DNA of 8,840 bases from a virus (taxonomy: Duplodnaviria; Heunggongvirae; Uroviricota; Caudoviricetes). The first letter of the stretch is position 1, and every line of letters starts with the position of its first letter. Of this stretch, positions 1-8,840 are shown piece by piece. Made by a program: the position numbers and the translations under genes. The stretch is taken from positions 1 through 8,840 of IMG/VR virus record IMGVR_UViG_2917881069_000002. One strand, 5' to 3'. Under the pieces are notes generated by a model. That model ran no database searches. It had not been told where the DNA came from and saw only the letters and a program-made list of their open reading frames with translations.

Positions 1-1038
1 TTAACGCTTATCCGCTACCAGTTTGAGCGCATGTTCCAGCACGTTAATGTCAGCGCCCGCTTTATGGGCATTTTCACTTAAATACCGCCGCCACTGCCGC
101 GCACCAGGAATCCCCTGGAACAGCCCCAGCATATGCCGGGTGATATGACCGAGATACGTCCCCTGGCTGAGTTCACGCTCAATGTACGGATACATAGCTC
201 GTACCACCGCCACCGGATCGGCATCGGTATCCGAGGAACCAAATATCTCTCGATCCACTGCCGCCAGAATGCCTGGGTTTTGATACGCTTCACGCCCGAC
301 CATCACGCCATCCATATGTTGCAGGTGTGCTTTAGCCTCTTCCAGCGACTTGATACCACCGTTAATTGACATAGCCAGATGCGGGAAATCACGCTTCAGT
401 TGATAGACGCGCGGGTAATCGAGCGGCGGGATCTCACGGTTTTCTTTTGGGCTTAAACCGGAGAGCCAGGCTTTACGCGCGTGGATGATAAACATCTCGC
501 ATTCGCCTTTGCCGGAAACGGTGTCGATAAAATCACAGAGAAATTCATAGCTGTCCTGGTCGTCAATGCCAATACGCGTTTTCACCGTCACTGGAATCGA
601 CACTACATCGCGCATCGCTTTTACGCAGTCAGCCACCAGTTGCGCATTCCCCATCAGGCACGCGCCAAACATGCCGTTCTGTACCCGGTCTGACGGGCAG
701 CCGACATTCAGGTTGATCTCATCATATCCGCGCGCTTCTGCCAGCTTCGCGCACTGCGCCAGCGCCGCCGGATCGCTACCGCCCAACTGTAACGCCACCG
801 GATGCTCTTCTTCACTGTATGCCAGGTAATCACCTTTACCGTGAATAATCGCCCCTGTGGTCACCATTTCGGTATAGAGCAACGTATTACGGGAGAGCAG
901 ACGCAGGAAATAACGGCAGTGTCTGTCCGTCCAGTCGAGCATAGGAGCAATGCTAAACCGAGAATTCCAGTAAACACCAGTTTTTTCAGGCATCACGCTG
1001 GTTTGATTAATTTTTTGTGTTTCATGATTATCGTGCAT
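1..1038 (-). CDS. dusA: tRNA-dihydrouridine synthase A (DusA), complete, 345 codons
   Basis: Minus-strand ORF with TAA stop at 1-3 and ATG at 1036-1038. Translation ([44 protein letters not shown] ... [21 protein letters not shown] ... ending ALKLVADKR) is recognisably enterobacterial DusA. No strong SD before the ATG at 1038; an in-frame ATG 45 nt downstream (MPEKTG...) is an alternative start. Confidence 0.95.
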
Positions 1039-1070
1039 TTTTGAACATTTCAGGCTATTTTTCTCGCGTT

Positions 1071-1106
1071 AGGTTCCCGCACAGGTTCCCACGTTTTATG
1101 GGAACC
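1071..1106. promoter_or_regulatory. Repeat cluster in the dusA-int divergent intergenic region: direct repeat AGGTTCCC (1071-1078, 1083-1090) and inverted repeat GGTTCCC-N9-GGGAACC (1084-1106)
   Basis: Read directly from the sequence aggttcccgcacaggttcccacgttttatgggaacc, 21 bp upstream of the int ATG. No T-tract on either side, so not an intrinsic terminator. Function (operator, integrase or accessory-factor site) is inference. Confidence 0.3.
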
Positions 1107-1126
1107 CGAAATAACGAGGTCGTGTA

Positions 1127-2224
1127 ATGGCGTACTATAACATAGAGAAACGACTAAAATCCGATGGCACACCACGCTATCGCTGTAATGTGATTATCAA
1201 AGAAAAAGGGGTTATCACTTACAGGGAAAGCAAAACATTCCCTAAACATGCTCATGCCAAAACATGGGGCACACAGAAAGTGATGGAATTAGATCTACAT
1301 GGCATTCCATCATCAAATGCTGTTGACGGGCTTACAGTCCGTGACTTACTACGCAAATATTTAAATGACCCAAATGCCGGAGGTAAAGCAGGCCGTACTA
1401 AAAGATATGTGCTGGAACTACTTATGGATAGTGACATTTCTGCGATCAGACTATCTGAATTAACAGAAAATGACGTAATAGAACATTGCAGGTTGAGAAA
1501 CAACGCCGGTGCAGGTCCAGCTACTGTTAGCCACGATGTTAGTTATCTTGGCAGTGTTCTGGATGCAGCCAAACCTGTATACGGAATTAATTACACATCA
1601 AACCCAGCAAAAGCCGCTCGTCCATATCTACTTAAACTTGGTTTAATTGGTAAATCAAATCGTCGTAATCGTAGACCAGCATCTGATGAACTAGACATGC
1701 TCATTGAAGGCCTTCAACAACGATCTACTCATAAATGCTCAAAAATTCCGTTCGTTGATATCCTCAAATTTTCTGTGTGGTCCTGTATGCGAATCGGAGA
1801 AGTATGCCGGTTACGATGGGAAGATCTCGACCAGGAACAAAAATCTATACTAGTAAGAGACAGGAAAGATCCACGTAAAAAGGAAGGTAACCATATGAAA
1901 GTGGCCTTGCTTGGGGAAGCCTGGGATATCGTCCAACGACAACCCAAAAAATCTGAATTCATTTTTCCATACAACAGCACTTCTGTTACCGCAGGATTTC
2001 AGAGGGTAAGAAGCAAATTAGGTATTAAAGATCTGCGATACCATGATTTGCGTAGAGAAGGGGCAAGTCGCTTATTTGAGGCTGGTTTTAGTATTGAGGA
2101 AGTCGCCCAGGTTACAGGGCATCGTTCATTAAACGTGCTATGGCAGGTATATACCGAACTGTATCCAAAATCTTTACATAATCGTTTTGAAGAACTCCAA
2201 AGGAGCAGAAATAAGACCTCTTGA
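1127..2224 (+). CDS. int: Phage tyrosine integrase (site-specific recombinase), dusA-associated type, 365 codons
   Basis: ATG at 1127 preceded by GAGG (1116-1119, 7-nt spacer). C-terminal catalytic region carries tyrosine-recombinase signature residues: Arg in CMRIGEVCRLRWEDL, H-x-x-R in YHDLRREGASRL, His in TGHRS and Tyr in LWQVYTELY. Divergent and 88 bp from dusA; lower GC than dusA. Confidence 0.92.
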   Translation: MAYYNIEKRLKSDGTPRYRCNVIIKEKGVITYRESKTFPKHAHAKTWGTQKVMELDLHGIPSSNAVDGLTVRDLLRKYLNDPNAGGKAGRTKRYVLELLMDSDISAIRLSELTENDVIEHCRLRNNAGAGPATVSHDVSYLGSVLDAAKPVYGINYTSNPAKAARPYLLKLGLIGKSNRRNRRPASDELDMLIEGLQQRSTHKCSKIPFVDILKFSVWSCMRIGEVCRLRWEDLDQEQKSILVRDRKDPRKKEGNHMKVALLGEAWDIVQRQPKKSEFIFPYNSTSVTAGFQRVRSKLGIKDLRYHDLRREGASRLFEAGFSIEEVAQVTGHRSLNVLWQVYTELYPKSLHNRFEELQRSRNKTS

Positions 2225-2272
2225 CACTGTTTATTCATACAGTTAAAAATAATACTGTATACAAACACAGTA
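2221..2272 (+). promoter_or_regulatory. SOS-regulated promoter: -35 TTGACA (2221-2226), -10 TAAAAT (2245-2250), two LexA boxes (CTGT-N8-ACAG) at 2225-2244 and 2253-2272
   Basis: Box 1 cACTGTttattcatACAGtt; box 2 taCTGTatacaaacACAGta, which differs from the consensus TACTGTATATATATACAGTA at only three central positions. The -35 overlaps the int stop codon (TGA 2222-2224). The GAGGGA RBS at 2275-2280 and dinI ATG at 2286 follow. Confidence 0.8.
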
Positions 2273-2285
2273 TAGAGGGATTTTT

Positions 2286-2534
2286 ATGCGTATTGAGATC
2301 TGCATAGCCAAAGAGAAAATGACTAAAATGCCAAACGGTGCTGTGGATGCGTTAAAGGAAGAATTAACTCGACGCATCAGTAAGCGTTATGACGATGTAG
2401 AGGTGATCGTAAAAGCCACCAGCAACGATGGCCTTTCTGTTACGCGCACCGCCGATAAAGATTCAGCTAAAACTTTTGTTCAGGAAACTCTGAAAGATAC
2501 CTGGGAGTCTGCTGACGAGTGGTTTGTTCATTAA
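2286..2534 (+). CDS. dinI: DinI-family (DNA-damage-inducible protein I-like) protein, 82 aa, prophage-encoded
   Basis: Translation [31 protein letters not shown] ... [10 protein letters not shown] ... [17 protein letters not shown] follows the E. coli DinI pattern as I recall it (MRIE..IAK...GA.DAL..EL.RRI...LSV...QETWESADDWFV; recalled, not verified). Good RBS and tandem LexA boxes immediately upstream. Confidence 0.88.
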
Positions 2535-2600
2535 TTAATACGTAAAATCGATAACGGCTGGAAATCATTCAATACTCGCACTATCGGAAGTTCACCAGCC

Positions 2601-2641
2601 AGCCGCAGTATTCTGCCATGACAAGTTGCTGCGGCTTTTTA
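2601..2641 (+). terminator. Putative rho-independent terminator downstream of dinI, between convergent genes
   Basis: Stem 2601-2610 (agccgcagta) pairs with 2627-2636 (tgctgcggct), 16-nt loop, followed by TTTTT (2636-2640). The long loop makes it weaker than a canonical terminator. No U-tract on the minus-strand side. Confidence 0.4.
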
Positions 2642-2644
2642 TGT

Positions 2645-2932
2645 TTAACGGATAAACAGCCAGACCAGCAGACACGCCACCACCGGCACAGCAAAATCCA
2701 TCAGACTTGCCATATCCCACACGCGCGGATCAAAACCACCCCACCACGGCATATTCATACGCTTGCCATGCCCGAACATTTCAATCCAGCGATATTCTGC
2801 CTGGGTATGTTCACGCGCAATGAAGAACGTACAACCGGCTATCGCTCCGTAAGCCCAGTTCCCGGTAAAAAGACCAACCAGTACCTGCGCAGCCACAGCA
2901 CAAAGTGCATGAAGGAAAGGTGTTATATCCAT
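2645..2932 (-). CDS. Small integral membrane protein (95 aa, 2-3 predicted TM helices), function unknown; candidate moron / superinfection-exclusion-type protein
   Basis: ATG at 2930-2932 preceded by AGGAGGAG (complement of 2934-2941), 10 bp after the stop of the upstream 227-aa gene. Hydrophobic segments FLHALCAVAAQVLVGLFTG, AYGAIAGCTFFIA and LMDFAVPVVACLLVWLFI. The opposing plus-strand 158-aa ORF (2618-3094) is His/Arg/Cys-rich junk with no RBS. Confidence 0.65.
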   Translation of the reverse strand: MDITPFLHALCAVAAQVLVGLFTGNWAYGAIAGCTFFIAREHTQAEYRWIEMFGHGKRMNMPWWGGFDPRVWDMASLMDFAVPVVACLLVWLFIR

Positions 2933-2942
2933 TACTCCTCCT

Positions 2943-3626
2943 TTATCCGATATCGCTTCGGGAAGTTGATAACAGCTTTAATTCTGACTCAAGTTCATCA
3001 ACTCTTTCTGTCAGTTTCTGGATATGGTGAATCAGTGGAACAACCAGACGTTCGTACATCACACCTTCGGCAACAAGGCCATTGCTGGAAATAGCTTCCG
3101 GTGCATCATCTTCGTTAGCTGGTCGCCAGTGTACAAACTGAGGGGCAATTTCTCCTACTTCCTCGGCAATCAATCCGTAGAATCCCCAGTCACGCCTGTC
3201 ATTTTCGCATTGCGACCTGTACCACACAGGGCGCATCTTGAAAATGAGATCGGCGTGCTCTGAATCTATCGTCTCTACTGAATGTTTATAGCGGATAGAC
3301 GATGTTGACCGCAGCACAGACGAAATTGCGGGGTCAGGATTAAGATAAAGGTTTGCCGCCGCTGTAGTCGTGCCCAATCCCCACAAATAAAACGCTTCAC
3401 GACCAGTCAGCGGGTAAAAATCTCCACCATAACGACCACTTTCCAGATCGTTCACTTCCACTTTGTTTTTCAGCTTATTATCAACTTCAGTTTTTGTGTA
3501 TCTGGAGCTGATATCCTGCTTTGCACTGGTCATCTCAGTCTGAAGCGTTGATACTTTTCCGTTAATTGAGGAAATATCTCCCTTTAGCTTGGTGATATCT
3601 CCTGGAATTACTGTCGATATAGCCAT
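2943..3626 (-). CDS. Tail-fibre-like protein: N-terminal coiled-coil plus C-terminal intramolecular chaperone (Peptidase S74 / endosialidase-chaperone type) domain, 227 aa
   Basis: ATG at 3624-3626 preceded by GGGAGA (TGA-GGGAGATAA-ATG). C-terminal half carries S74-type motifs: S109-S-I-R-Y-K114 (S-x-x-R-x-K, candidate autocleavage Ser/Lys dyad), MRPVWY, GLIAEEVGEIAPQFV, and a terminal helix PLIHHIQKLTERVDELESELKLL. N-terminal ITKLKGDISSINGKVSTLQTEMTSAKQDISSRYTKTEVDNKLKNKVEVNDL is heptad-like. Confidence 0.8.
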   Translation of the reverse strand: MAISTVIPGDITKLKGDISSINGKVSTLQTEMTSAKQDISSRYTKTEVDNKLKNKVEVNDLESGRYGGDFYPLTGREAFYLWGLGTTTAAANLYLNPDPAISSVLRSTSSIRYKHSVETIDSEHADLIFKMRPVWYRSQCENDRRDWGFYGLIAEEVGEIAPQFVHWRPANEDDAPEAISSNGLVAEGVMYERLVVPLIHHIQKLTERVDELESELKLLSTSRSDIG

Positions 3627-3635
3627 TTATCTCCC

Positions 3636-3917
3636 TCACATCCAGCCACGAAGTTGATGTTCAACTACAACCGCGTATTCATCGAATAATGACGATATTT
3701 GCGTATCATTAATGATGCGCACGTTTACAAAATATCCGTCTTCCTTAACACATACCGGATCGCCATCTTCAGTAAGTTCTCCGGTTTCTTTGTACACGTT
3801 ACCTATCACGTCAATGAGAATATCATCCTGCATCGACTCGTCATCATAATAGCCGATACTCTCCATAAAGGCCGAAAAGTCGGCTCTGTCGGCAAATTTG
3901 AGTGTTAAATCTTTCAT
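3636..3917 (-). CDS. Highly acidic 93-aa protein of unknown function, translationally coupled to the side tail fibre gene
   Basis: ATG at 3915-3917 overlaps the fibre stop (ATGA) and is preceded by GGGGAGAG inside the fibre 3' end. About 28% Asp+Glu with very few basic residues; no signal peptide or TM segment. Does not resemble lambda Tfa-type assembly proteins by eye. Confidence 0.65.
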   Translation of the reverse strand: MKDLTLKFADRADFSAFMESIGYYDDESMQDDILIDVIGNVYKETGELTEDGDPVCVKEDGYFVNVRIINDTQISSLFDEYAVVVEHQLRGWM

Positions 3918-6289
3918 TTAATACTCTCCCCGATTTGCGCATCAGTTAATTCTTTATGCCATATTCTGAAATTTCTAATATGACCGAATAAGTGACGTTC
4001 ACCCGTTGAAGTTTGCCCACCAAAACGAATGCTTGTATTCTTAGTTACATATCTCCACGCGGTTTTTTTAGGAACACTAGGAGGAATATCACCATTCAAA
4101 ACAATATGAACACCATAATCTTTAGTAATTCTAAATCCAGCAACGAACTTTCTCTCTTTCGTTACCAGGTAACTATTAACGCGTCCAGCATCTGCACCAA
4201 CATCAATATAAGGGCTACCAGTATTTGCGGCAGTACCGCCACGGCAACCAAAAATAACGGCCTGGCCAGTTGGCACACCGGAAAAATCCATTATACGTGG
4301 TGCTGCATTAGGAGGAAGTTCCCATTCCCAATTTCGATGAACTTCGGCTAAAACTGTAATAGGTGCGTCATACATATTATTCTTAACAGGAATGTTAACC
4401 AAATCACTAGCGCGGGTAGCTGGTACGTCGTTAGTTATGATTAATGATGTTGCATGAGAACATTTCTCTACCTGAGCGGTTGCCGCCTTTATGTAATTTC
4501 CTGCGACCAATTCGCCGCCACTTTTAGCAAGCATTTCAGTACGAGCATAAACGCTCATATCTTCGGTGGCTTTAAATGTCGATTGGAAAAAATACCATCC
4601 ACTAGCAGGATCATAATCAACGCGACTAGACAAAACATCACTAACTAGTTTAGCGGTATCAAGATCCAACATAGCATCAGCAATAAATGTGTTTCCGTTC
4701 CCGTCATCATTTAATTTTGAAATACGATGGCGAGCGCGACAACCAGCCCCCTTAACACGAATAGATATAGTAACATATTCACCACCAACAACTGGAATCA
4801 CACGGGATGTCCCAGTAGAAATCAACGTAACTGGCCCAGTGTCGGATGATTCTTTATAAGTGAATGTTGCTTGAGTAAAACCAAATTCATCAATAGAGTT
4901 TTCACTAACAGATAAACGGTTTGTATTTCTGTTCCAGTTCGCTGGTGAGTTACTATTAATAAAGTTATTAGTCGTAGTACCTTCAATCAACAAACCATTT
5001 TTTTCGAAGCGTGGTTCGTCAATTGCAGCCTCCGTCAGTACACCAGATTTGTTAATGTAGGTTGCTTTCGATGCGCGTTTAAACTTTACAACCTTATCGC
5101 CAGGCATTGTTATTTCATCATCACCAATAACAATCTTTTTATATGATGGCGAAAAGCCCGTAATCATATCCAGTGAATCGTTAAACGGTATCCACACATC
5201 GGGAAGCGGCTGCAAAACTTGTTTATACGGCTCCGCAGCCTGGCTTGCATACTCTCTGGCTGCGTCTTCACTTGCTTTTGCAGCCGTCTGGCTTGCAGCG
5301 GATGCTTTCGCCGAGTTAGCCGCCGCAGTCTCGCTCGCCTTTGCGTTGGTTTCACTGGTTTTTGCAGCTTTTTGACTGTTGGCTGATGCAGTGGCAGAAG
5401 AAGCCGCCGCACTTGCAGAACCAGCTGCGGCACTCTCGCTTTGGGCTGCTGCATCCTGACTGTTTTTCGCCGCAGTTTCGCTGGCTTTGGCATTCGTTTC
5501 GCTGGTCTTCGCTGCCGTCTGGCTGGACTTTGCGTTAGTTTCACTCGTCTTCGCAGCTTTCTGGCTGTTAGCCGCAGCAGTTGCTGATCCAGCTGCTGAA
5601 GTCGCAGAACCGGCTGCAGCACTCTCGCTTTCGGCTGCTGCAGCCTGACTGCTTTTCGCCGCAGTTTCACTGGTTTTGGCATTCGTTTCGCTTGTTTTCG
5701 CTGCCGTCTGGCTGGACTTTGCGTTAGTTTCGCTCGTCTTTGCGGCTGTCTCGCTGTTTTTCGCATTGGTTTCTGATTTTTTGGCTGCTGTCGCGGAGTT
5801 TGCCGATGCAGTCTGTGAGGCCGCTGCCGCCTGTGCGCTGTTAGCTGCATTCGTTTCTGAGGTTTTCGCCGCGTTCTTCGATGATGCCGCTGCAGTTTCG
5901 GATTTCTTTGCCGCCGCTGCGCTCTGAGAGGCGGCTTCGGCGTTGCGTGCCGCTTCTTCCACCATTTCCTCAAAACGACGCAATGCCTCCGGCATGACGT
6001 CCTCTTCCGTCATGGCACCGAGAAAATCATTCAGCGTACCTGGTCTGGAACCTTCATAGACGGTAATGGTCCCGGCATGTGAAGGCGGAAAACCTTCAAC
6101 CAGCAGGGTGACGCTGTACTGGCCATACTCAACATCCATACTGTAACGCCCGGCTTCATCCGGATTTTCAGATGCCACCGTGTTCACCAGTACCGTGGTG
6201 CTGTTACGCTTTGCCTTCAGTTGAATAGTGCAGTTCTGTATTGGTTTTCCCGCACCATCTTTCAGCACACCTGAAATCTGTACTGCCAT
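3914..6289 (-). CDS. stf: Side tail fibre protein (lambda Stf-like N-terminal domain, Ala/Ser/Thr-rich repeat shaft, distinct C-terminal jelly-roll/LamG-like putative receptor-binding domain)
   Basis: Start taken as ATG 6287-6289 (GGAG 5 nt upstream); the track start at 6295 is a GTG inside the SD. N-terminus MAVQISGVLKDGAGKPIQNCTIQLKAKRNSTTV ... EAGRYSMDVEYGQYSV ... GFPPSHAGTITVYE matches the lambda Stf N-terminal domain as I recall it. C-terminal ~400 aa are AT-rich DNA, starting EPRFEKNGLLIEGTTTNNF and ending RFGGQTSTGERHLFGHIRNFRIWHKELTDAQIGESIK. Confidence 0.9.
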   Translation of the reverse strand: MAVQISGVLKDGAGKPIQNCTIQLKAKRNSTTVLVNTVASENPDEAGRYSMDVEYGQYSVTLLVEGFPPSHAGTITVYEGSRPGTLNDFLGAMTEEDVMPEALRRFEEMVEEAARNAEAASQSAAAAKKSETAAASSKNAAKTSETNAANSAQAAAASQTASANSATAAKKSETNAKNSETAAKTSETNAKSSQTAAKTSETNAKTSETAAKSSQAAAAESESAAAGSATSAAGSATAAANSQKAAKTSETNAKSSQTAAKTSETNAKASETAAKNSQDAAAQSESAAAGSASAAASSATASANSQKAAKTSETNAKASETAAANSAKASAASQTAAKASEDAAREYASQAAEPYKQVLQPLPDVWIPFNDSLDMITGFSPSYKKIVIGDDEITMPGDKVVKFKRASKATYINKSGVLTEAAIDEPRFEKNGLLIEGTTTNNFINSNSPANWNRNTNRLSVSENSIDEFGFTQATFTYKESSDTGPVTLISTGTSRVIPVVGGEYVTISIRVKGAGCRARHRISKLNDDGNGNTFIADAMLDLDTAKLVSDVLSSRVDYDPASGWYFFQSTFKATEDMSVYARTEMLAKSGGELVAGNYIKAATAQVEKCSHATSLIITNDVPATRASDLVNIPVKNNMYDAPITVLAEVHRNWEWELPPNAAPRIMDFSGVPTGQAVIFGCRGGTAANTGSPYIDVGADAGRVNSYLVTKERKFVAGFRITKDYGVHIVLNGDIPPSVPKKTAWRYVTKNTSIRFGGQTSTGERHLFGHIRNFRIWHKELTDAQIGESIK
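5341..5760 (-). repeat. In-frame tandem duplication, period 189 bp (63 aa), about 2.2 copies, containing 42-bp (14-aa AAKTSETNAKSSQT-like) sub-repeats, within the stf shaft
   Basis: Copy at about 5425-5556 is near-identical to 5614-5745 (offset 189 bp); unit starts at about 5341, 5530 and 5719 (partial). Encodes the repeated block AAKTSETNAK(S/A)S(Q/E)TAAK..SESAAAGSA...ANSQK. Confidence 0.75.
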
Positions 6290-6300
6290 ACTCACTCCAC

Positions 6301-6328
6301 AAATAAAAAAGGCGCCATTTCCGGCGCC
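6301..6328 (-). terminator. Rho-independent terminator between J and stf
   Basis: Minus strand reads GGCGCC-GGAAAT-GGCGCC (6-bp all-GC stem, 6-nt loop; 6328-6311) followed by TTTTTTATTT (6310-6301). It sits 22 nt after the J stop, and its T-tract abuts the stf SD. Confidence 0.6.
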
Positions 6329-6349
6329 CGTATTGGGGTTATAAATATT

Positions 6350-8107
6350 TCAACGGATACTGATACCGGAAGCAGCTTTTTTGGTCACAATCACTGTACA
6401 GTCTGTGATGTTACCTGCGCCCTGATTGCCTTTCTGGAAAATCTTAAACTCCAGAGTGACGCTACCACCACCACTCGGCATATCAATAACCGCACTGTAA
6501 CTACCGGGAATGGCTCCTTTAGTTTCTCTGGTTGCGATTAATACGCCGTTTTTGCGAACTTCAAAACCATAACCCGTGTATCGCGTACCTCCCGGGTTAT
6601 TACCGCTCCCCGGATCGTCATACGCCACACCATTAAAAATAATGGGCGGAATAATAATCTGACGGTCAAAGTTATGATCATCGTAAATGGTGACTGTAAC
6701 CGTCCCGCCTGGTGTTTCCGTATCGCCCCACGAGCCAGTTTTTTTCGGGAATGGCTTAGATACAGCTTTGACGAAGTCACCTCTGACCTGAGTTGCCTCC
6801 AGCATTCCCTTAATCGTACAGTTCTCATTTATCGTGACGTTGTTGAGCGTCCCGGAGTTCGCGTTCACGTTACCGCTGATATCCGCATTTTTCGCCGTCA
6901 GCCGCCCGTCCGGTGTCAGGGAAAATGCCGGAGGATTACCGCCGCTGGTAATGGTGGGAGCCGTCAGATACTTCAGGAACACTTCGTTCATGAATATCTG
7001 GTTGCCCTGCGCCACAAACATCGGCGTTTCATTCCCGTTTGCCGGGTCAATAAACGCGATACGGTTAGCGGCAACCAGGAACTGGCTCAGTTTGCCTTCC
7101 TCCGTATCCTCCATACTAAGGCCAAGCCCCGCGACATAATGCCTGCCGTCTTCGGTCTGCTCAATTTTGACGCCCCACATGGCATTCCATTTATCGTTGG
7201 CGTCCTTCCACTCTTTCGAAAACTCCTCCAGTTTGCTGGCGTTATCCTCCGTCAGCTCGACTTTTTCCAGCAGCTCCTTGCCGAGATGGGATTCGGTTAT
7301 CTGGCCTTTGAAAAAATCCAGGTAACCTTCCGCATCATCGCTCGCCCGACCGACAGCCTCCACGAATGTCGATTTGCCGACGGTGTTCACACTGCGAACG
7401 TAAAAATAATAATCATGGCCCGGTTTGATATTGATACTGGCGGCTATCCAGTACAGCGCCGTGCCAAGATAGCGGGCTGTGGTTTCAACCTGCCTGATAT
7501 CCGCAATCCGCTTTTCCGAGAACCAGAACTCAAACTGTACAGTCGGATCATAAACCGCAAGATGCGGCGTGGCGGTTATCTGAAAATAGCCCGGCGTCAG
7601 CTCAATCCGCGATGGCGCTGCCGGTGCGGCAATCCGGAACGATACCGACGCCGGATCGCCCTGCTGCCCCCACGCATTTACCGCCCGGACTGTCAGACTG
7701 TAATTTCCCAGAGCCAGCTGCCTGAAGCGGTATGTGGTTTCCGTCGTCCGGGCCGTGCTGACCAGCCGCTCACTGCCGTCATCCGCTGCCACGGTCAGGC
7801 GAAGCATAAAGCTCACGCCCTTCACCACCTTCGGCGTATCCCAGCGCGCCAGCACCTGGTATTCCCCGCTGTCTGCGGTGACTTCTGCGGTCAGGTGTTG
7901 CACTGCTGGCGGAGTGACACCATTCACCGTGCCGCTCTGGTCGCCGTCAAAGTGCGCCCCGTTATCCACGATGGCTTCTTTCTCCGGCACATGCTGCACG
8001 GCGGTGATGGCATACGTACCGTCATCGTTCTCACGGATACTCACGCAGCGGAACAGGCGCTGGCGCAGCGTCGGCAGCTTCAGCCCCCACCACGCTGTAT
8101 TCTGCAA
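6350..8107 (-). CDS. J: Host-specificity protein J (central tail fibre / tail tip), C-terminal 585-codon segment; its upstream end is a frameshift point, not a true start
   Basis: Long minus-strand ORF ending ...[13 protein letters not shown] with TGA at 6350-6352. Translation from [41 protein letters not shown] onward reads as a lambda gpJ-family protein. The track M at 8107 is a TTG; the real continuation is in the overlapping upstream frame. Confidence 0.85.
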
Positions 8108-8840
8108 CGCCGTCAGGAACCCGTCTCACTTTCACCTTCACGCCGTCGGTGACGGACTGGACCTCCACGCTGACCGGATTCCCCTGTCCGTCAACCAGGC
8201 TTATCAGCGTGGTGCCGGAGGATGGCAGCGTGATTTCACGGTCGAGCGTCAGTGTCCGCGTCTGGCTGTTCACCGCCAGCACGCGCCCGCCGATGCTGAT
8301 ACCCGCATAGTCATCATCACAGATTTCAATGACATCGCCCGGTACATGGCGAAGCCCTTCTGCACCCACGCTGAAGTCCACGGTCTGCGTTTCCAGCAGC
8401 TCCGTTTTAATCAGCCACAGCCCGGCGCGGTGTGCCTGCCCCCGGCTGGTACAGCCAAAGGCATCCATCTTCGTGACGTTACGACCGTAACGGAGAATGG
8501 CCTGCGTATCTTCAACAAGCTCTGTCGCCGTCTCCCAGCCGTTATTCGGGTCAATCCAGTTCACCTCAACGGCATTATGGCGGTCCTTCAGGGCGCTGAA
8601 GCTGTAGCGGAACGGCGCGCCATCATCCGGCATCACCACATTACTGCGGTTATAGGTCCACACCTTATCCGACGGTCGGTCCTGCACGAACGTCAGCGTC
8701 TGCCCGTTCCATACCGGCATACAGCGCATCGCCGAGCAGAAATCACTGAGAACATCCCACGCCTTACGCTGTGTGGTCAGGTAGGCATTACGAGGTGATG
8801 CGCGGCTCCGTGCCACCAAAGCCATCCGGCACCGACTGGT
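8031..8840 (-). CDS. J: Host-specificity protein J, N-proximal segment (5' end beyond the window), terminated by an apparent frameshift
   Basis: Frame is open to the window edge (codons TSRCR precede the track's ATG at 8823-8825). Translation ...[72 protein letters not shown]...[17 protein letters not shown] is J-like. It then degenerates to [19 protein letters not shown] and stops at 8031-8033 while the J-like reading continues in the other frame. Confidence 0.85.

Follow-up and report, generated by a model that had tools for sequence, protein, structure and literature searches.

Do the small genes that follow the side tail fibre of a lambda-like prophage form one unit devoted to that fibre, or do they have separate tasks and separate histories? 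The question was raised by positions 2645-6289 of the DNA analysed here, a stretch of 8,840 nucleotides (nt; positions 1 to 8,840 of IMG/VR record IMGVR_UViG_2917881069_000002), which is called the window below and represents the end next to the integrase of a lambda-like prophage that sits at dusA on an Escherichia chromosome. A preliminary description had proposed a four-gene fibre operon whose three small genes may act together in fibre maturation, host range or exclusion. The reading considered probable here, with moderate confidence, is another one: the block would be the distal end of the late tail unit of the prophage at dusA, and would consist of a modular two-part side fibre plus an unrelated passenger gene. 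The genes concerned, with protein lengths in amino acids (aa), were the following.

3914-6289, minus strand: stf, proximal side tail fibre of 791 aa (PF08400; phrog_1419 over its full length)
3636-3917, minus strand: orf93, acidic alpha/beta protein of 93 aa (phrog_1361), coupled to stf via an ATGA overlap
2943-3626, minus strand: orf227, predicted miniature distal fibre of 227 aa
2645-2932, minus strand: orf95, three-helix membrane protein of 95 aa (phrog_1443)

These four minus-strand open reading frames (ORFs) were tightly packed. As first described, they are co-directional and spaced by -4, 9 and 10 base pairs (bp): stf and orf93 overlap by the 4 nt ATGA, orf93 and orf227 are 9 nt apart, and orf227 and orf95 10 nt apart. 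Each displayed a GGAG-type ribosome-binding site 4-8 nt upstream, in agreement with the Shine-Dalgarno (SD) motifs already recognised, namely GGAG for stf, GGGGAG for orf93, GGGAG for orf227 and AGGAGG for orf95. The start of stf was assigned to the ATG at 6289, 5 nt after its SD; the GTG at 6295 proposed by the ORF finder is located inside the GGAG box (6298-6295). With ratios of nonsynonymous to synonymous substitution (dN/dS) of 0.09-0.43, orf93, orf227 and orf95 were under purifying selection and are therefore genuine genes.

The first of the four genes encodes a lambdoid Stf, as indicated by its N-terminal PF08400 domain and by its position after gene J, which ends at 6350. The protein was divided as follows.

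5897-6289, minus strand: N-terminal anchor domain, aa 1-131 (PF08400, E = 6.6e-67)
about 5240-5900, minus strand: shaft rich in Ala, Ser, Thr and Glu, with a periodicity of 7, 14 and 63 residues
3917-5236, minus strand: C-terminal lectin-like domain of about 440 aa, aa 352-791, termed StfC
4409-4990, minus strand: GTA_spike_fiber within StfC, aa 434-627 (NCBIfam NF048003, E = 3e-15)

The shaft is encoded by tandem repeats with periods of 21, 42 and 189 bp, and its periodicity fits a coiled coil. The 189-bp repeat was present in 2.3 copies at 5321-5758, with the 42- and 21-bp periods nested within it. RefSeq annotates the stf homologue as fragmented in SF-468 and ETEC6333. StfC was 48-54 % identical to the C-termini of lateral fibres from the T5-like phages IrisVonRoten and mar004NP2, the T1-like phage KarlJaspers and the Nonagvirus JenP2, and 36 % identical to the fibre of the rV5-like phage FFH2; a conserved segment of Stf reads QPLPDVWIPFNDSLDMITGF. 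In the description of IrisVonRoten, models of the corresponding region of Gp22 display a galectin-like domain that protrudes at the end of the proximal fibre, and a role as additional receptor-binding domain was proposed for it (PMC11990801). By its domains, the N-terminal part of Stf would anchor the proximal fibre to the tail tip, and StfC would probably bind a surface glycan.

The Tfa/Caudo_TAP family matched none of the four proteins in Pfam or NCBIfam, which upheld the earlier statement that a recognisable Tfa is lacking; with no Caudo_TAP among the three downstream proteins, the lambda-type pair of Stf and Tfa was absent. The place directly behind the fibre gene is occupied by orf93, whose product displayed 21 D/E against 7 K/R residues (counted on the translation) and whose start overlaps the stop of stf, so that its description as an acidic, coupled protein holds. 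Searches of Pfam, NCBIfam, PADLOC and the PDB with this protein returned nothing meaningful, and 105 of its relatives, individually compared with Pfam, gave only scattered sub-threshold matches. Its top PDB match, glyceraldehyde-3-phosphate dehydrogenase (E = 0.011), was discarded as noise.

A homologue of orf93 was found directly after a StfC-type fibre gene, with overlapping stop and start, in ten out of ten loci from five lineages. It was also kept where no distal fibre gene comes next, as in FFH2, 2G7a, 4C10 and PhiR41_1, which ties its function to the lectin-ended fibre and not to the distal one. The simplest and most likely reading is that orf93 would be a dedicated assembly factor replacing Tfa, made in step with Stf through the stop/start overlap and acting as partner of StfC; a small structural cap or adaptor is less likely. 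Among E. coli prophages, orf93 was 90-95 % identical where StfC was about 53 % identical, hence any contact between the two must involve the conserved ends of StfC. A tight co-variation of StfC and orf93 was considered and not retained, being weakly supported (Spearman 0.72, n = 10). A 193-aa fusion of orf93 and orf95 on a metagenome contig (P0319) looks like stop-codon read-through in a single sequence and was not used as evidence. Published virion proteomics (PMC6563131) covered eight proteins and was too shallow to place the orf93 homologue as structural.

The third gene, orf227, had been described as a stand-alone S74 protein. The Peptidase_S74 domain was indeed present: PF13884 scored 26.9 bits, above its cut-off of 22, and aa 109-165 aligned with positions 1-57 of the 58 in the model. 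The remainder of the protein points to a miniature fibre provided with its own cis chaperone, not to a free-standing S74 protein, and could be divided as follows.

3579-3626, minus strand: predicted docking peptide, aa 1-16, of sequence MAISTVIPGDITKLKG
about aa 10-60: heptad coiled coil
aa 61-108: short tip
3300-3302, minus strand: S109, at the predicted cleavage between T108 and S109, with K114 at 3285-3287
2946-3302, minus strand: S74 intramolecular chaperone, aa 109-227

Orf227 aligned with the C-terminal 240 positions of the long-fibre family phrog_3299 and matched the C-terminal S74 region of PDB 8hqz_d (1076 aa, deposited as 'L-shaped tail fiber assembly'). The segment T108-S109-S-I-R-Y-K114 was invariant in all five of five homologues, from E. 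coli prophages to a T1-like phage, with the same spacing as the scissile bond of T5 pb1, between T1263 and S1264, and its K1269 (PMC4690869). In T5 pb1, the K1F endosialidase and phi29 gp12, the S74 chaperone works in cis and is subsequently released by self-cleavage (PMC4690869).

The N-terminal peptide was shared much more widely than the rest. The motif M-[AV]-T-x-T-[VI]-IP-x-DI-[TK]-x-LK was displayed by six out of six distal genes of 227-589 aa, and residues 1-28 of orf227 were 50 % identical to residues 1-28 of Gp24 from IrisVonRoten (BLASTP). The slot after orf93 held genes of 225 aa in a T1-like phage, of 345-348 aa in 2G7b and JenP2, and of 574-589 aa for IrisVonRoten Gp24 and mar004NP2; all alleles terminate in an S74 domain and have middle parts unrelated to one another, and orf227 is the smallest allele of the slot (alleles of 227 to 589 aa). 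A downstream second fibre gene, whose putative docking peptide is common to otherwise unrelated distal fibres, points to a bipartite fibre of the LtfA/LtfB or Gp22/Gp24 type. Published work describes Gp24 as a 'T-shaped' distal fibre with a predicted attachment to Gp22 (PMC11990801) and argues for the attachment of LtfB to LtfA in DT57C from a conserved 45-aa N-terminal docking peptide (PMC4728585). Alleles of the orf227 shaft (about residues 10-60) differed by insertions or deletions of exactly seven residues, consistent with a heptad coiled coil. The N-terminal peptide of orf227 would thus dock onto the proximal fibre and its heptad coil would trimerise with the help of its own S74 chaperone, which would then cut itself off between T108 and S109 and leave a mature stub of 108 residues on the proximal fibre. 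The tip of this stub may either bind a receptor or merely cap the docking site.

Orf227 could alternatively be a chaperone working in trans, in which a coiled-coil handle carries a detached S74 domain and which assists the trimerisation of Stf before being discarded. Its homologues are annotated as 'putative lateral tail fiber chaperone' or 'chaperone of endosialidase', over half of its length belongs to the S74 domain, a mature stub of no more than 108 aa is predicted, and Stf itself has neither an S74 domain nor a Tfa. This alternative was nevertheless judged unlikely. The characterised S74 chaperones considered (T5 pb1, K1F, phi29 gp12) act in cis on their own chain (PMC4690869), and the conserved catalytic T/S....K signature makes sense only if an upstream product is released. 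Moreover, the N-terminal peptide is common to genuine long distal fibres with receptor-binding domains, and the occurrence of Stf-type fibres with orf93 but no nearby orf227-like gene indicates that Stf does not need orf227.

Given a probable two-part fibre encoded by stf and orf227, with orf93 as a candidate assembly factor, the distribution of the parts was informative. The pair formed by StfC and orf93, with its translational coupling, was found in lambdoid, T1-like, T5-like, Nonagvirus and rV5-like phages. It occurred without orf227 and without orf95 in the rV5-like FFH2, was directly followed by orf95 in 2G7a, 4C10 and PhiR41_1, and preceded other distal fibres of 345-589 aa in other loci. 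Comparison of the window with phage 2G7a uncovered a sharp break: orf95 was 90 % identical (synonymous divergence, dS, of 0.15) while the adjacent orf93 was only 50 % identical (dS saturated), which indicates a recombination joint between both genes. Prevalence was estimated from megablast-detectable alleles in 5,426 complete E. coli genomes, as follows.

orf227 allele: 746 genomes, 959 places
orf93 allele: 990 genomes (about one sixth of complete E. coli genomes), 1,531 places
orf95 allele: 1,904 genomes (about one third), 3,769 places

Diverged alleles, such as the 50 %-identical orf93 of 2G7a, escape megablast, so that these counts are lower bounds for each family. The unequal counts announce nested rather than equal distributions.

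The proposal of a single dedicated unit of orf93, orf227 and orf95, conserved along with the fibre and serving its maturation, host range or exclusion, was confronted with this distribution. Many E. coli prophages, at three integration sites, do contain all four genes side by side and identically spaced; the remote metagenomic phage L023 keeps the order of StfC-like, orf93-like and orf95-like genes, and contig L025 places orf95 between two StfC-like proteins. Against this, each small gene also occurs without the others, allele prevalence differs about four-fold, a recombination joint lies between orf93 and orf95, and the inspected T1-like, T5-like and Nonagvirus fibre loci displayed no orf95-like gene after the cassette. 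A single unit was therefore regarded as most unlikely. The recurrence of the block in E. coli prophages at dusA, prfC and zinT stood, its inseparability did not, and the idea of one functional unit was given up in favour of a modular cassette in which the small genes have nested, independent distributions.

The two metagenomic contigs deserve separate mention. On L023 (2761-6690), the order was a StfC-like protein (405 aa), an orf93-like protein (174 aa) and an orf95-like protein (62 % identical), directly followed by two proteins with multiple transmembrane (TM) segments, a GH108 endolysin and spanins; similarity of the orf93-like protein was confined to its N-terminal 66 residues, and orf95 was far better conserved than its neighbours. 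On L025 (3226-6392), the orf95 homologue lay between two StfC-like proteins (421 and 434 aa) and no orf93-like gene was found.

The last gene, orf95, was correctly described as a membrane protein. Its very confident AlphaFold2 (AF2) model (predicted local distance difference test score, pLDDT, of 94.4) consisted of three helices at residues 4-23, 26-53 and 74-94, and its motif was AREHTQAEYRWI...GKRxNMPWWGGFDPRxW. R40, E41 and W72 were invariant in the family, and H8, Q44, A45, E46 and P83 nearly so. A profile search gathered 428 clusters at 50 % identity, with proteins of about 70-145 aa; this large family has no Pfam entry, and its members all belonged to phrog_1443. The 150 representatives listed of these clusters were 58-146 aa long and contained no domain fusion. 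The E. coli protein was still about 60 % identical to homologues from Comamonas and Aeromonas. Two sets of 69 relatives, individually compared with Pfam, returned scattered sub-threshold matches (PhoR, cytochrome b561, Phage_holin_8). Family-wide, the loop carried 5.5 K/R residues on average against 0.7 or fewer at either end; by the positive-inside rule, the loop is predicted to be cytoplasmic and the protein to be oriented N-in/C-out. A periplasmic loop, initially guessed from basic C-termini, was dropped after these charge counts. The N-terminus MDITPFLHALCAV lacked both a basic n-region and an L-[AS]-[GA]-C lipobox.

Twelve of the 14 contexts displayed orf95 directly behind a receptor-binding-protein gene or the accessory gene of one. 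It followed S74-ended distal fibres in the window, 2G7b and ETEC6333, came directly after orf93 in 2G7a, 4C10 and PhiR41_1, and in other contexts stood behind fibres of the P2/HP1 type (Leclercia, Aeromonas), the pectate-lyase tailspike of a lambdoid prophage from Citrobacter, tailspikes of the GDSL-esterase and NosD types, and a 2,520-aa J-like protein in Comamonas. It was located next to StfC-like proteins in two metagenomic phages, and one Aeromonas copy was stand-alone. Such company with unrelated types of receptor-binding protein characterises a passenger that is linked to these genes in general. Orf95 thus appears, on its sequence and contexts, to be a small inner-membrane protein encoded by a passenger gene and not a component of this fibre; it would act on a conserved target in the envelope or cytoplasmic membrane.

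Matches to orf95 (tblastn) in the phage collection came from Escherichia, Aeromonas and Salmonella, and the Escherichia ones listed were lambdoid or other temperate phages. A restriction to temperate phages was rejected since an Agtrevirus-like contig of 160 kb carries an orf95 homologue between two tailspike genes (L018, 5001-5297). In the closest isolated phage, Salmonella phage pSal-SNUABM-02, the same tailspike genes are adjacent without orf95. This suggests that the orf95 of the Agtrevirus-like contig moved in together with a tailspike module.

Two roles, both of them guesses, were weighed for such a passenger. One is that of an exclusion or receptor-masking factor which alters the envelope, for instance glycan export or DNA entry, so that lysogens or lysing cells would not take up or trap phages, following the logic of Cor/Llp or T4 Imm. 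Conversion and exclusion genes adjoin receptor-binding-protein genes in epsilon15, T5 and phi80. The linkage of orf95 to receptor-binding-protein genes extends over siphovirus, myovirus and Ackermannviridae-like tails; its conservation, far above that of its neighbours (60 % between E. coli and Comamonas), hints at a conserved host target; and it resides mostly in temperate elements and bacterial chromosomes. However, the gene had no promoter of its own in the scan and lies 0-65 nt behind late genes, so that expression in the prophage state would be conjecture, its conserved loop is predicted to be cytoplasmic, and the protein displayed neither lipobox nor signal peptide nor PADLOC match. A role in exclusion is consequently conceivable but doubtful. 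The narrower candidate of a receptor-blocking lipoprotein of the Cor/Llp type was rejected for want of a signal peptide with lipobox.

The other role is that of a holin-like or lysis-timing protein located by chance at the end of a tail operon. Its size of about 95 aa and its three hydrophobic helices would suit a holin; single family members gave weak Phage_holin_8 matches (best E = 0.0036), and in the metagenomic phage L023 and the Comamonas prophage L008 the genes immediately downstream of orf95 encode two multi-TM proteins, an endolysin and spanins. These two were the only lysis-adjacent cases, both cassettes already carry holin-like proteins of their own, and in the window and most other contexts orf95 is far from lysis genes. 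Furthermore, the nearly invariant polar loop of 35 residues is unlike holin loops, the charges predict the opposite of the class I holin topology, and no holin family passed any cut-off. The holin-like role was accordingly rated as clearly unlikely, and a class I holin proper was discarded, the window protein having no holin-family match, no lysis genes in the window and the opposite predicted topology.

The region downstream of orf95 was also a cargo site. It was occupied by a pair of SLATT and reverse-transcriptase genes in the prophage of E. coli GPEC1337 (L003, 3258-5157) and by the manganese/iron transporter sitABCD in phages 4C10 and 2G7a. Insertion-sequence genes also interrupt the fibre gene of 4C10.

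Whether the block is an operon in its own right depends on its borders, which comprised two hairpins.

6301-6329, minus strand: intrinsic terminator between J and stf (terminator scan, sequence and fold)
2601-2636, no strand assigned: hairpin 8 nt past the stop of orf95

The first was a canonical terminator with a stem at 6329-6310 of 8 pairs (6 G-C) and a T6 run at 6310-6305 followed by ATTT. It abuts the SD of stf, leaving about 11 nt between the T-run and the ATG. The terminator was kept in prophages L002 and L003, displayed a compensatory G:C to A:T stem pair in phage 2G7a (L015), and was replaced by a different hairpin with T6 at the same position after lom in prophages L014 and L021. The succession of terminator, SD and ATG was thus kept in every lambdoid relative examined (L002, L003, L014, L015 and L021) and looks like a selected insulator that ties expression of stf to antitermination.

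The second hairpin (stem 2636-2629 / 2608-2601, -17.6 kcal/mol, z = -2.1) had been included in a terminator at 2601-2641, and only the hairpin itself could be retained for the operon. After it, the operon strand reads UGGCUGGUG and displays no U-run; the T-run at 2637-2647 is confined to the plus strand. This makes the hairpin a canonical terminator of the int/dinI transcript, which converges on it, whereas for the fibre transcript it is at best a non-canonical 3' stabilising hairpin. It accompanied orf95 in prophages at dusA, prfC and zinT and, moving with this gene, belongs to the phage module. In related genomes RefSeq reports an 81-nt 'capsid protein' pseudogene fragment over this region (window 2590-2640; L002 4032-4112), which is probably an annotation artefact or a relic.

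A consensus scan of the minus strand found no sigma-70-like site of at least 9/12 in the whole window and none of at least 8/12 at 2933-3500 upstream of orf95, weak or non-sigma-70 promoters escaping such a scan. These 570 nt were of interest because a moron, as which orf95 was also considered, would have its own promoter and terminator; the hairpin past the gene has no U-run on the strand of orf95. With no promoter between the upstream terminator and stf, the cassette is not autonomous and would form the end of a late unit reached by read-through. The four co-directional, tightly packed genes are almost certainly co-transcribed, as the preliminary description had supposed; the autonomy implied by 'operon' was overstated, given the terminator about 11 nt before the ATG of stf and the lack of a promoter. 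They would probably be read as the tail end of the late transcript. In lambdoid phages, late read-through is carried out by Q-modified polymerase, and by analogy the J/stf terminator would presumably be passed in a Q-dependent manner.

The remainder of the window agreed with its position at the edge of a prophage and contained the following features.

1-1038, minus strand: dusA, at the left edge of the window
1127-2224, plus strand: tyrosine integrase
2286-2534, plus strand: DinI-like gene
6350-8107, minus strand: C-terminal 585 codons of J (Pfam Ig_J, Ig_J_second, Phage_Tail_Tip and Ig_GpJ_C)

After dinI, the minus-strand order was orf95, orf227, orf93, stf and the C-terminal part of J. Closely related arrangements were encountered in complete E. 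coli genomes at dusA, prfC and zinT/yodB. No family was returned when the window was scanned with Rfam. Further upstream, J continues in other frames, with changes near 8085-8089 and 8794-8797 (tblastn with intact J queries); frame -3 carried residues ~310-324, frame -1 residues 326-560 and frame -2 residues 559-1137, and the junction at 8085-8089 falls within a run of five G. The broken reading of J denotes either a defective prophage or indel errors of the assembly. If the frameshifts are real, this copy cannot provide a tail tip although its fibre cassette is intact.

Several points weigh against the reading as a two-part fibre with an unrelated passenger. With J frameshifted in the window, this copy may not build tails at all. 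The virion location and the cleavage of orf227 are predictions, its mature part of 108 aa is very small for a receptor-binding tip, and the annotation 'putative lateral tail fiber chaperone' is borne by its T1-like homologue. The identity of orf93 does not closely track that of StfC, and the searched text on the BASEL collection covers the connection between proximal and distal fibre without an orf93 homologue (PMC11990801). Finally, searches of Pfam, NCBIfam, PADLOC, the PDB and BFVD with orf95 gave no functional clue.

Such a layout is widespread among prophages of E. coli and lytic coliphages, and the fibre architecture is mostly ordinary. Host range, both of coliphages and of engineered lambda-based delivery vectors, is set by side and lateral fibres. 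One and the same plug-in fibre system, in which a lectin-ended proximal fibre is accompanied by a 93-aa partner and by an exchangeable distal fibre that would be recognised through its 16-residue N-terminal peptide, is common to lambdoid prophages, which are temperate, and to lytic phages of the T1, T5 and Nonagvirus types; the rV5-like phage examined (FFH2) displayed the fibre end and the 93-aa partner with no adjacent distal fibre. It would offer a simple rule for distal-fibre swaps, orf93 being an accessory gene that probably must travel with the lectin-ended fibre. Only the families of orf93 and orf95, chiefly phrog_1443, could hold a surprise. It is possible, and is put forward tentatively, that orf95 represents an undescribed class of small, extremely conserved three-helix membrane proteins with a fibre-independent late task while orf93 is a new assembly factor for lectin fibres, unrelated to Tfa. 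If so, this orf95 class would be co-expressed with receptor-binding proteins as different as lectin-type fibres, S74 fibres and beta-helix tailspikes, by siphoviruses as well as P2-like myoviruses and an Ackermannviridae-like phage, and might shut down surface-glycan export or phage DNA entry, thereby sparing the loss of progeny on the producer cell.

Of the known systems, that of lambda (J-lom-stf-tfa) shares with the window the PF08400 domain of Stf and the placement of stf behind J, where the late operon ends; the window differs by the absence of Tfa/Caudo_TAP, by another C-terminal domain and by the addition of genes for a second fibre and a membrane protein. The layout had been contrasted with that of lambda as a whole, which could not be maintained, because other prophages related to the window keep J and lom in front of the same cassette. 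The T1-like (Drexlerviridae) phage KarlJaspers (bas06_0037-0035) displayed the same three genes in the same order, with identities of 50 % for the C-domain of the fibre, 55 % for orf93 and 62-63 % for orf227; it is virulent, has no orf95 and displays a different fibre N-terminus. As to the S74 domain, T5 pb1 and the K1F endosialidase (Garcia-Doval et al. 2015, PMC4690869) likewise have a Thr/Ser pair, a Lys at +5 and a C-terminal coiled-coil helix. In orf227, where cleavage is predicted, the domain is attached to a product of 108 residues, against a fibre or spike of more than 900 residues in those proteins.

The closest described system was the two-protein lateral fibre of T5-like phages, represented by Gp22/Gp24 of IrisVonRoten and LtfA/LtfB of DT57C. 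In DT57C and DT571/2 (PMC4728585; PMC10713586), the second fibre is attached through the first by a short N-terminal peptide, and the ends are autocleaving S74 chaperones (Golomidova et al. 2016; Ayala et al. 2023). The S74 ends are found there on both proteins, and the searched text mentions no intervening orf93-like gene, whereas the proximal fibre of the window ends in a lectin-like domain followed by orf93. The resemblance to IrisVonRoten (Bas32; Humolli et al. 2025, PMC11990801) was closer: its fibre gene is followed by an overlapping gene for a 92-93-aa protein and, 9 nt further, by a second fibre gene. StfC was 49 % identical to the C-terminal region of Gp22 and orf93 37 % identical to Gp23, and orf227 matched Gp24 over its residues 1-28 and its S74 end. 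The window element differs in being temperate, in its lambdoid PF08400 anchor instead of a T5 collar-binding end, in a distal fibre of 227 aa, without Gp12-like or T5-like receptor-binding domain, instead of 574 aa, and in the orf95 that follows. The cassette of the window is thus a lambdoid, temperate version of this lateral-fibre system, in which the anchor is of the PF08400 type, the distal allele is the shortest known and a gene for a membrane protein is added.

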